A stretch of DNA of 64,000 bases from Felis catus (lineage: Eukaryota): the NCBI RefSeq assembly GCF_018350175.1, contig NC_058383.1, positions 7,688,001 through 7,752,000 on the forward strand. The letters run 5' to 3'. The notes beneath the pieces are model-generated. The model was not told the origin of the DNA. It made no database searches and saw only the letters and a program-made list of their open reading frames with translations. Shown here piece after piece: positions 5,103-10,017 of the stretch. Every line of letters begins with the position of its first letter. Position 1 is the first letter of the stretch. The translations under genes were made by a program, and so were the position numbers.

Positions 5103-8075
5103 ATGCTGCCTGCTGCCACTGCCTCCCTCTTGGGGCCCCTCCTCACTGCCTGGGCCCTGCTGCCTTTCGCCCAGGGCCAGACCCCCAACTACACCAGGTA
5201 GGTCTCTTGGCACCTTCCAGATAGCTTGAGTGAGCTTCAAAAGCCCTGATTCTTGGGGGTTTTGCCTGTGGATCCTGTGGATCCTTTCACTAACACACCA
5301 CCCCCCCAGATTTCCCGCAGCCCCCACCCTCCCCCAGGCCCCAAGTTCTCCCTCCCTGCTCCAAGACCACTGTCTCCAGCGGGGCACCACTAGCCACCAT
5401 TCCTCCACCCTTTGTCCCCTGCCCTCTAAGTTTCCCCATCCTCCCAGACCCTTGCCCCCCACCATGGAACCTGAGAGCTCCAAGACCTTCAACTTGCCTG
5501 GTATCTGGACATCTGGATTCCAGGAGGGAATTAGAGATGGTGGGGGAAGCGAGTGGGAGACTTGGGAATCAGATACTCAAGTAGTTAGCAGGAACAGGAG
5601 CAGGGCAAAGGTTGGGAGCTGGGGGACCCTGGTCTCCAGGTTCAATATGAGGGCCATCACTGCTGCTTCTCATCTCCCCGCCCCCTCCCCCCCCCCCCCC
5701 ATGGCCTCGTGGCTGTGTCCACATCTGGAAGTAGTTAGGCGGCTCCTGTCCCCGACTGCCAGGCAGGGCGCGAGGGGGGAGAGTGAGGAACAGCCCGAGG
5801 AGGATTCCGGGAATTCCTGTGGGGGTGGGGGTGGGGATTGGGGGGTGTTGCAGAGACAGCCACATGTTCCTGATCCTCTCAATCCCAGCCTGGCTGGCTG
5901 AAGCTGCCCCAGACCCCCTTTCTCCCTCATCCCCCTGGCTTCCTTCTCTTGCCCCTCACCCTCATTACCCTATCCCTCCCAAGCTGTCCTCCACTCATGG
6001 CTGCCCCCTCTTCTGTTCTCCAGACCTGTGTTCCTGTGCGGAGGGGATGTGACTGGGGAGTCTGGTTACGTGGCAAGTGAGGGTTTCCCCAACCTCTACC
6101 CCCCTAATAAGGAATGCATCTGGACAATAACGGTGAGAAAGACCCTCTCTTCGCTACCCCCTTGTTGAAGTCTCTGAGGCCTGACTGCTAAGAGAACCCG
6201 GGTCCACCCAGCCCCTGCCACCCTCCTCCCTGCACCACTGCGCCCAGGGAAGTCCAGGCCCCCTCCCGTCTTCACTGATGGCAGCAGCGCCCACAGTAAC
6301 ATGTGGCAAAGTGTCCTCACACCTTAACTCCAGGCCTGCTCTTCTACTCCCAGTTTTATTTCTGGTCCTCGAATCTCCACAGACCCCAGGGCTTGTCCCC
6401 TGGGCAATGAGCTCCTGCAGAGCCCAGGCCCTCTGCTCTGCTGCCTGGTGGCTTCCCTTCCTGTTGAGGCCCAGTGTCCGTATGAAACACTTGGGGAAAG
6501 GGAAGTATCCTTTGCCTGGGTTGTGTGTGGCCTGACTTTGCAGGTCCTCTCCCCTGTCCTCGTCGTCAGGTCCCTGAGGGCCAGACTGTGTCCCTTTCCT
6601 TCCGAGTCTTCGACTTCGAGCTGCACCCTGCCTGCCGTTACGATGCTCTGGAAGTCTTTGCCGGGTCTGGAACCTCCGGCCAGCGGCTTGGACGTTTCTG
6701 TGGGACCTTNNNNNNNNNNNNNNNNNNNNNNNNNNNNNNNNNNNNNNNNNNNNNNNNNNNNNNNNNNNNNNNNNNNNNNNNNNNNNNNNNNNNNNNNNNN
6801 NNNNNNNNNNNNNNNNNNNNNNNNNNNNNNNNNNNNNNNNNCACCTTCGCCTTCCCCCTCTCCTGGCTCCGCCCCCGGTGCAGGCCCCACCCCCAGCCTT
6901 AACCTACCCCCCCCCCCACCAGACAAACCCTGCGCCCGAGAGCCTAGGGCCCCCATTACCTCCCTTACCCTTTTTCCTCACTAACTGCCCCTTCAGTCCC
7001 TCCTCCCCATCTTCTCTCGCCCCTCCCGCACCCACCCATCCCCTCTTCCAGGCCCCCCCCCAGGCGCGAGGCGGAAATGGGTCACCGACCCGCGGGTGGA
7101 ATGGGCGGCCTGGGGTTACTGGGACGGTGAGTAACTGCCCGCCCCCGTCCGCAATCGGGCTCCCTCAGACGGGCGCGAGGGGGTACGCCCGGGCTGGGGG
7201 ACTAGGTTCCCCCGACCCGGAGCCCCCTACACCCAGCCCAGGGCTCCCGATTGCGGTCCCATCACCCCCTCCTGGCGGCAGAAGCCTCCCCTAAAATGTT
7301 TAAGGCAGGGGCCTCGCCAAAGAGGCCTCTGGGGCTGTGCCCCAATTTGAGGGCGCCCTCACAGAGAGAGGACTCCCCAGCCTGCAAAGGGGACTTTTCC
7401 GCCGGGCGGGGGAGATGGGATCTCCCAGGGGAAGAGGAGCGAGGTGGCCGCGGGTCAGGGGGAGGGGCGAGAAGGGAGCGTGTCCAGCCAAGTCCTCCTC
7501 CCCCTTCCACCGCCTGACTGGGCGCCCGGCTCCAAGACTCCCCTGAGCGCTGGTCCTCCAAGCCCCCTCTCTGCTAACCAACCCCCTCTTTCCTACCCCT
7601 CTTCTCATCCCCTCCCGCTGAGACCCAGACGTCCGAGCTTCCAGCACCGGCTTCCAGCCTAGAGCTCTCCTCGAGCTGACCGAGGGTCTCCACCGCCTCC
7701 CACCNNNNNNNNNNNNNNNNNNNNNNNNNNNNNNNNNNNNNNNNNNNNNNNNNNNNNNNNNNNNNNNNNNNNNNNNNNNNNNNNNNNNNNNNNNNNNNNN
7801 NNNNNNNNNNNNNNNNNNNNNNNNNNNNNNNNNNNNNNNNNNNNNNNNNNNNGGTACCGATCCCCAGCCCCGGCTGCCCTCGGGGACCCAGGCGGCGTCC
7901 TCCAGCATGCAGCCAGCAGAGATTAATTGACCATCTGCTATGTCCCGACCAGTGAGCTCGCGCTGGTGGGGAGCAAAACCAGACCCAGAACTGCTTGCAC
8001 TCAAAAAAAAAAATGTAAAATTACACCTGTGACGGTCTTACGAGAGTGAGGTACACGATGCTGATATATAAACGG

Positions 8076-8136
<61 letters not shown>

Positions 8137-10017
8137 AGGCGGTGGAGGTGGATGCTGGGTCTGTTCCTTGAGAATGAGCCAGGACTAGACCTTGCCGACG
8201 ACGGCAACAGACGCCACTGAAAGGTTCCCCTGAGTGTGTGATCCTCCGAGTGGTGGTGAATGCTTTAGCGGGGGGAGGGGAGATCTCCAGGGGACGCGGG
8301 AGTGGAAAGAGGAAGCTGTGGCGAGCTTCTGGGCTTCCGGAGGCGACGCGGAGTGGAGGAGGAGAGAGGTGCAGGGCTTCCGCGCCCTCAAGCCGCCCTG
8401 GGTCCTGCCGCCAGGTGATCTCGCTGACCTTCGGGAAGTTTGACCTGGAGCCCGACACCTACTGCCGCTACGACTCGGTCAGTGTGTTCAACGGAGCCGC
8501 GAGCGACGACGCCAAGAGGCTGGGGAAGTTCTGCGGCGACACCGCCCCGGGGTGAGGGGGCGGGACCTGGGTGGACATGGGCCGGGGCGTCTCCAATTCC
8601 CCAGGGGAAACAGTGGTGGGAACCTCGCGGCGGTTGGGAGGGGCCAGGCTTAGCTGAAGAGGCGGGATCTGAACCCGGAGCCCCCACACTGGTGGGCGGA
8701 GCTAGTAGGAAGCCAGGCAAAACGGGTCCGTGGATCCAGAGGCGAGTAGGTCCTGCGAAGCAAGGAAGCTGGTACAGTCAACCCCGGGCAGAGGTCACAA
8801 GGCCCGCCTGACGCATCCCCCGCTGCCCCGCCACCCGCAGTACCATCTCCTCGGAAGGAAACGAGCTCCTCGTCCAGTTCGTCTCTGACCTCAGTGTCAC
8901 GGCCGATGGCTTCTCCGCCTCCTACAAGACCCTGCCGCGGGGTGCCGCCAAAGAAGAGCAGGCCCAGAGCGCCGGGGAGGATGCCCGGTCGGGTACCCCG
9001 ATCCTCAGCCCGGGCCCCAAGCCCGGACTCCCATCTGAGGAGAAACCAAAAGCCTCGTCTGAGGCCCAGGCAACTCCGGGGGGCCCCGGTGAGTCTGGGA
9101 AGGGGGAGGAAGGGGACGCAGACTGAAGGCAGCCGTTTCAAAGGTCTCCTTTCTGAACTCATTCATTCACTCATACATCACTCACTGGTGCCTCCTCTGA
9201 ACTGGTACTGGGTGCTGGGGCCCAAAGCTGGAAAGAGCTCGGAATGGGTCCTAATCAATGAGGCCGTTATGGGGAAAGTGGCACTTCCTACCCGCTGCGT
9301 AGGTCGCCCTCCACAAACCGCGTCCCCCTCCCTCCTAGATGTGCCCAGTGTCCCCTGCCCAAAGCAGTGCCGCCGGACAGGCACCTTGCAGAGCAACTTC
9401 TGTACCAGCAACCTGGGTAAGAAGCCCCATCTCCCAGCTTTGCTCCTCCAGCAGCTCTCACCTCCCTCTGGCCCTCAAATCCCTCCTCCTGGTTCCAGCC
9501 CTGAGCTGGCCTCCTCTCTCCTCACCGCTCACCCCCACTCTCCCACAGTGGTGACCGCAACAGTGAAGTCCATGGTTCGGGGCCCAGGGGAGGGCCTCAC
9601 TGTCACTGTCAGTCTCATTGGTGCTTACAAAACCGGTGGCCTGGACCTGCCTTCTCCACTCACTGACACTCCCCTGAAGTTTTATGTGCCCTGCAAGCAG
9701 TGCCCCCCCATGAAGAAAGGTAACAGATGTGGGTGAATGGGGAGGAGGACTTTGCCTCATGAAAATGATAGAATCTGAAGGACTCTGATGAGGAGGTATA
9801 TCTACAAGGTCTCAATAACACACTCTCAATCCCTCCCTCCCCTCCCCCAGGAGTCAGTTATCTGATGATGGGCCAGGTGGAAGAGAACAGAGGTCCTACC
9901 CTTCCTCCAGAGAGCTTCGTAGTTCTCTACCGGTCCAACCAGGACCAGATCCTCACCAACCTCAGCAAGAGGAAGTGCCCCTCCCAACCTGTCCGGGCTG
10001 CTGGGTCCCAGGCCTGA
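5103..10017 (+). CDS. PCOLCE: Procollagen C-endopeptidase enhancer 1 (signal peptide, CUB1, CUB2, linker, NTR); about 462 aa if the gap-hidden exons are of human size
   Basis: Exons 5103-5197 ([14 protein letters not shown]...TPNYTR), 6024-6132 (PVFLCGGDV...CIWTIT), 6570 into gap 6710-6841 ([15 protein letters not shown]...GRFCGT), exon 4 inside gap 7705-7852 ending about 7853, 8415-8551, 8841-9088, 9339-9416, 9549-9719, 9851-10017 (...[16 protein letters not shown]). AATAAA at 10069-10074. Confidence 0.97.
7052..7126 (+). other. PCOLCE: Predicted 75-nt in-frame cassette exon in PCOLCE intron 3
   Basis: Branch point CACTAAC at 6979-6985, long pyrimidine tract, acceptor TTCCAG ending 7051, donor GACG|GTGAGT at 7127-7132. 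Length is 3n and there is no stop in any frame. Confidence 0.6.
8080..8134. repeat. (GT)n microsatellite in PCOLCE intron 4
   Basis: About 27 GT units. Confidence 0.95.

Follow-up and report, generated by a model that had tools for sequence, protein, structure and literature searches.

PCPE-1, the product of PCOLCE, serves as a biomarker of fibrosis and is a drug target, with a mechanism that depends on CUB1 and CUB2 as a pair; its literature, as represented in the accessible text of a review (PMC8377038), describes one isoform. A 64,000-nt stretch of the Felis catus genome (contig NC_058383.1; the window) raises the question of whether a second form exists, since a first-pass annotation of it proposed that PCOLCE hides an in-frame cassette exon encoding a Trp-rich insert between CUB1 and CUB2. 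Is this exon real, does selection act on its peptide, and what would a PCPE-1 with a longer linker do?

Splice signals around the cassette exon

PCOLCE was found on the forward strand of the window, with the translations of exons 1 to 3 and 7 to 9 matching felid PCOLCE proteins letter for letter. N gaps cover exon 3 at its end and the greater part of exon 4, and the flanking junctions of the cassette are therefore not directly visible in the window. The features of the region are collected in Table 1.

Table 1. Features of the cassette exon and neighboring PCOLCE exons (window positions)
Feature	Position	Strand	Remarks
PCOLCE exon 2 (CUB1 start)	6024..6132	+	translation present in felid PCOLCE proteins
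PCOLCE exon 3, part used (CUB1)	6570..6707	+	100% identical to P0006
Branch point CACTAAC, consensus	6979..6985	+	branch A at 6984, 67 nt before exon; predicted use
Intervening CAG	6994..6996	+	11 nt after branch A; possible frameshifting acceptor
C-rich pyrimidine tract and acceptor AG	6997..7051	+	AG-free for 53 nt (6997-7049); AG at 7050-7051
Cassette exon, 75 nt, phase 1-1	7052..7126	+	residues 155-179 of the long isoform; 25 residues as in P0006
Basic patch R-R-K-W	7069..7080	+	
W-A-A-W-G-Y-W-D motif	7102..7125	+	two WxxW sequons (W172, W175)
Donor GTGAGT	7127..7132	+	
PCOLCE exon 5 (CUB2)	8415..8551	+	

The branch point, the TTCCAG acceptor before position 7052, the 75-nt stop-free exon, the donor position and an optional 63-nt form were all as the first-pass annotation had described them, and the exon lacks stops in all three frames. 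Two details were revised. The pyrimidine tract is present, but its AG-free part is 53 nt rather than about 55 nt, and an AG at 6995-96 that had gone unmentioned would, if used, create a 130-nt frameshifting exon. The donor (GACG/GTGAGT), which had been called perfect, agrees with the consensus at 7 of 9 positions; other PCOLCE donors, read in register, agree at 6 to 8 of 9. No fetched protein represented the 63-nt form, which would start at 7064 after a second CAG. The window, scanned on both strands, has 24 acceptor/GTRAGT pairs with a pyrimidine tract of at least 80%, and a CTAAY-type branch point lay 15 to 100 nt upstream in only 2 of them, both of which use the cassette donor. Where intron 3 can be read, its sole ACTAAY is the one within the cassette branch point. 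We take this ACTAAC to be a QKI-type element; QKI can compete at branch points.

The cassette region is rich in GC and CpG, and the stretch is single-copy in the genome; an origin from a copy elsewhere was rejected, with the self match accompanied only by one match at E 5.84. A hairpin hiding the donor was likewise rejected, as the segment 7040-7170 folds worse than its shuffles (z +1.42; 183 of 200 shuffles fold as well), with mixed predicted base pairing at the donor (0.14 to 0.81 across 7127-7132). Nor was a structured RNA recognized in intron 3, where four Rfam matches all fell far under their gathering scores.

The long form in homologous proteins

A 49-residue open frame around the cassette, used as query, returned 17 proteins, of which 15 were full-length PCOLCE proteins with a peptide 96 to 100% identical and 2 were Logan open frames running through the intron. 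In the full-length proteins the insert always lay between an SG[TSN]-type CUB1 end and EHQFCGG, which fixes intron 3 as phase 1. The phase and peptide that had been proposed were thus borne out, with the insert entering between ...SGT and EHQFC.... The in-frame placement between CUB1 and CUB2 held more widely: among 240 fetched proteins, 60 carried the insert at the predicted junction, 154 were skip forms and 26 had no readable linker. The 60 long forms (35 placental, 8 marsupial, 14 turtle, 2 snake and 1 bird) span about 56 named species, including orangutan, siamang and macaque; no human long form was present among the 15 records listed of 26 human-cluster members. Long and skip forms were annotated within one species in Neofelis, Cynocephalus, Elephas, Notamacropus, Malaclemys, Pelodiscus, Candoia and Ammospiza.

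The exon was therefore hidden only with respect to the literature and the curated human, mouse and rat records examined, being already listed in RefSeq "isoform X1" models of many species (e.g. XP_060505326.1, XP_006504621.1) and in UniProt D3YUE2_MOUSE (493 aa). These records are the long isoform, with an identical or near-identical insert at the same junction. Most long-form records are RefSeq X isoforms, automatic or unreviewed. RefSeq X models generally rest on aligned RNA reads. Some of the records may be annotation projections, the support for expression being annotation. Projection from mammals is unlikely for the bird, snake and turtle inserts, since they are only 40 to 52% identical to the mammalian insert. 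None of the 60 long forms was listed with a Logan (assembled-read) source versus more than 20 skip forms, suggesting that inclusion is probably low or restricted; together with the curated skip forms, we infer that the cassette is usually skipped.

One further record touches the exon. The chimpanzee "PCOLCE isoform 4" (P0149) begins at a Met inside the cassette in frame +1 (window 7053-7126), reads exon 4 out of frame and returns to the normal frame in exon 6; it is probably a 5'-incomplete model.

Conservation of the insert peptide

Identities were calculated as means versus the jaguar protein P0006 for 12 placental, 5 marsupial and 9 sauropsid sequences. In that order, the insert was 98.7, 83.2 and 49.3% identical, CUB1 94.9, 88.0 and 65.4%, CUB2 95.7, 88.8 and 76.3%, NTR 87.6, 71.6 and 52.3%, and the long linker 50.3, 23.2 and 18.3%. 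By these sequence comparisons the insert is as conserved among placentals as the CUB domains, unlike the long linker. Absence of peptide conservation in other mammals had been named as grounds for discarding the exon; the peptide is kept well beyond mammals.

There were 15 distinct insert variants of 25, 26 or 27 aa, all keeping the frame. W175, Y177 and D179 were unchanged in every variant, and all 15 carried an R-x-[KR]-[WS] basic patch. W178 was W in 14 of 15 and F in the bird, and W172 was W in 11 of 15 and G in the other four. The snake insert has four tryptophans at i+3 spacing. This pattern indicates that selection acts on the insert peptide.

The insert was absent from 5 teleost, 2 coelacanth, 1 caecilian and 11 lamprey records and from 7 amniote PCOLCE2 records; one parrot record could not be read at the linker. 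An amniote-only origin is provisional because the sample is small. A profile of 13 insert variants found no match outside PCOLCE among 387 fetched proteins, and a 50%-cluster search was dominated by cubilin-like proteins. Two lamprey models add four residues (KSRR) in the CUB1-CUB2 linker, and a Komodo dragon PCOLCE2 model adds seven in the same linker (together P0323, P0395 and P0343). These additions, which probably come from alternative splice sites, are unlike the cassette peptide except for basic residues.

The same conservation could in principle reflect a constraint on DNA or RNA, such as a promoter element of PCOLCE-AS1 or a splicing element, with the exon merely leaky and its peptide without a role. 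In the part of PMC10705168 available, human PCOLCE-AS1 starts at hg19 chr7:100201829, within a PCOLCE segment ending at 100201840. If that end is the end of exon 3, as it appears to be, the antisense start lies 11 bases from it and has the cassette some 0.2 kb upstream, so that the cassette may overlap the antisense promoter. The GC- and CpG-rich composition and the lack of Logan support for long forms would also suit this explanation. However, the mammalian and sauropsid peptides differ in steps of whole codons (25 to 27 aa) and the W-to-F change is conservative, while the basic patch, Y-[WF]-D and the spacing of the aromatics are retained. Moreover, both forms are annotated separately in bird, snake and turtles, whose inserts are too diverged for projection. 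A purely nucleic acid-level constraint is therefore improbable. The cassette is very probably a real, selected coding exon.

The tryptophan motif and possible C-mannosylation

The first-pass annotation also read the peptide as a WxxWxxW C-mannosylation consensus known from thrombospondin type 1 repeats. The WxxW sequons are indeed carried, but the full WxxWxxW is present in only 11 of 15 variants and is not invariant. WxxW itself occurs in 14 of 15 variants, and WxxF in the bird. In the eight long forms checked, W-x-x-[WCF] sites occur only in the insert, and the skip form P0125 has none. The mammalian sequons are WAAW and WGYW, those of reptiles WEPW, WHYW and WDYW, and the bird has WHYF only.

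According to the accessible text of PMC12990085, modification falls on the leading W of WxxW, and in WxxWxxWxxC DPY19L1 acts on the first and second W; the +1 position calls for a small residue, position +2 is tolerant and WxxF is poor. The same text indicates that most WxxW sites in solved structures are without mannose. The mammalian +1 residues (A, G) fit the small-residue rule, with no Cys at -2, whereas those of sauropsids (E, H, D, A) mostly break it. C-mannosylation of the insert is thus plausible, and judged from the sequons probable, in mammals, while the sauropsid +1 residues and the bird WxxF argue that it was not the ancestral constant. Furthermore, since +2 is tolerant and yet Y177 is invariant, C-mannosylation does not explain the constraint, and a binding surface would. 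The same points weigh on the idea that the exon is solely a glycosylation or secretion switch, whose C-mannose sites alter export from the ER, stability or half-life and recruit no new partner. The exon does supply the protein's only sequons, optimal in mammals, but Y177 and D179 are invariant despite the +2 tolerance of the transferase (in the text available on it), and the reptile and bird sequons are poor, leaving such a switch a slim chance. The supplements of PMC8256286, in the 25,203 characters available, gave no match to PCOLCE.

The link to thrombospondin type 1 repeats did not hold beyond a resemblance of motif. The i+3 Trp spacing of the insert is common to strand A of the repeat (WxxWxxWxxC) and to the cytokine-receptor WSXWS, reptile W-E-P-W resembles the repeat, and there are potential DPY19L1 sequons as in the repeat. 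The repeat, however, is a three-stranded domain of 50 to 60 residues with three disulfides, whereas the insert is an isolated linker motif with an invariant Y and D and no terminal xxC. Its 25 to 27 aa include no Cys in any of the 15 variants and no W-x-x-C, the last W being followed by D-E-H. Pfam detected only CUB and NTR families in P0006, P0123 and P0218 and none for the insert frame, and the insert had no PDB sequence match and no ESM Atlas match as a known domain.

A related proposal would have the insert dock on latent TGF-beta as TSP-1 does, its basic-aromatic patch and WxxWxxW linking PCPE-1, and hence BMP-1, to growth-factor activation. From the portion of PMC13600962 available, the type 1 repeats of TSP-1 carry KRFK and WxxW. 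The insert has a similar order of basic patch, spacer and WxxW repeats. Against this, KRFK-, RFK-, RRFR- or KTFR-like motifs occur in none of the 15 variants, and TSP-2, which has WxxW and no KRFK, does not activate (PMC13600962, same portion). We consider such docking very improbable.

Structure and possible function of the long form

The canonical nine-exon PCPE-1 (PCOC1_HUMAN, 449 aa; PCOC1_MOUSE, 468 aa) and the long form share gene, signal peptide, CUB1, CUB2 and NTR. They differ in the linker, which gains 25 residues (25 to 27 in amniotes), among them a basic patch and every WxxW site of the protein, the domains being unbroken. The first of two AlphaFold runs, built on 27 sequences, gave a poor model (mean pLDDT 64), and the second (77 sequences, mean pLDDT 74) gave confident CUB1, CUB2 and NTR domains; in both, residues 153-180 had a pLDDT below 50. 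The low values may reflect the shallow alignment of 15 variants rather than disorder. Arg and Trp are both present in the insert, as a Trp-Arg ladder would require, in a part of the model with pLDDT below 50.

In the crystal of PCPE-1 with procollagen III, the linker (mature residues 126-132) is invisible and described as flexible, and CUB1 and CUB2 touch, with procollagen chain A in their cleft (PMC6372009, accessible text). As the normal linker is both flexible and disordered when procollagen is bound, a longer one need not by its length alone abolish activity. Work by Kronenberg in 2009 reportedly found a lengthened CUB1-CUB2 linker harmless. For these two reasons we favor a long form that retains procollagen binding.

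We therefore tentatively propose, with a probability of roughly 45%, that the exon yields a minor, amniote-conserved, frame-keeping long PCPE-1 that still binds procollagen, gains a docking motif and is thereby re-targeted. The cassette would usually be skipped, with inclusion confined to certain cell types or stages, perhaps under control of the distant perfect branch point doubling as a QKI site. The 25 to 27 residues would stay a flexible linker extension. They would carry a short linear motif in which W-x-x-W-x-Y-W-D comes after a basic patch, and DPY19L1 may C-mannosylate its W172 and W175 in the ER in mammals. This motif could form a docking surface, missing from the short form, for a partner that is either an extracellular protein or a glycosaminoglycan. 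The long form would thereby be re-targeted and its CUB1 and CUB2 could continue to clamp the procollagen C-propeptide. That a linker insert is conserved across amniotes to the degree of the folded domains suggests a second function under selection, at the hinge of the PCPE-1 mechanism.

A bolder version is that the C-mannosylated Trp/Tyr motif docks on BMP-1/tolloid or a non-collagen partner and that this amniote-new exon switches PCPE-1 from enhancer to inhibitor or adaptor in a specific tissue, which is unlikely. If PCPE-1 did hold two jobs, splicing would be an unrecognized control point for collagen maturation and fibrosis.

In the main rival reading, the long form might instead be switched off, so that it enhances weakly, serves as a decoy or binds BMP-1 as PCPE-2 does. 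The insert could fold back onto either the CUB1/CUB2 cleft or the calcium-dependent faces that bind procollagen, where its Arg/Lys would mimic procollagen lysines. Alternatively, the basic patch could make the linker easy to cut and so separate the CUB domains. The insert adjoins the cleft at the CUB1-CUB2 contact, which receives procollagen chain A (PMC6372009, as above), and the basic patch is present in 15 of 15 variants. PCPE-2 (PCOLCE2), an endogenous BMP-1 inhibitor on the same scaffold, shows that CUB1-CUB2 can switch role, and in the available portion of 10.64898/2026.09.22.752281 the PCPE-2 scaffold can inhibit BMP-1 and needs linked CUBs. PCPE-2 is, however, the product of a separate gene with no such insert in the seven amniote records. 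A furin-type R-x-[KR]-R site occurs in only 2 of 15 variants, both from turtles and none mammalian, and neither AlphaFold run placed the insert with confidence. Plain inactivation, moreover, would not require an invariant W-x-Y-W-D, and linker lengthening is, as noted above, reportedly harmless. Loss of activity thus appears somewhat unlikely. Where the first-pass annotation had offered an inactive, dominant-negative or re-targeted isoform, the last seems the better fit to the conservation pattern.

Standing of the long form in the literature

Full-text searches of the open literature yielded no description of a long PCPE-1 isoform. The accessible parts of PMC8377038, PMC11567036, PMC10696041 and 10.64898/2026.09.22.752281 make no mention of a PCPE-1 splice form, and those of PMC9310463, PMC5474519 and 10.1101/2024.02.06.578872 held nothing relevant to the cassette exon. 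D3YUE2 occurs in one serum proteomics paper (PMC8241050, in the text available). Excerpts of PMC9516339 describe a validated Pcolce exon change in mouse stem cells, and those of PMC10705168 and 10.64898/2026.09.30.755812 report PCOLCE splicing changes; the exon is not named in the first and the cassette exon not in the other two. From its coordinates in the portion available, the event of PMC10705168 would map to the exon 3 region, not the cassette exon. The cassette yields a true, deeply conserved, annotated and apparently unstudied splice variant of a known protein. Its existence bears on those antibodies, ELISAs and knockouts that fail to distinguish short from long PCPE-1, and the exon would exemplify how splicing can turn on C-mannosylation sites.

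Other observations at the PCOLCE locus

Intron 4 contains a long (TG)n microsatellite at about 8078-8135. The translations of exon 5 and exon 6 (8841-9088) matched none of eight felid proteins exactly; relative to P0006 they have A for V in CUB2 and T for P at the exon 5/6 junction. Intron 7 (9417-9548) is 132 nt long, in frame and without a stop, and it is kept in a Leopardus model (P0020, 506 aa), where it inserts 44 residues into the NTR domain.
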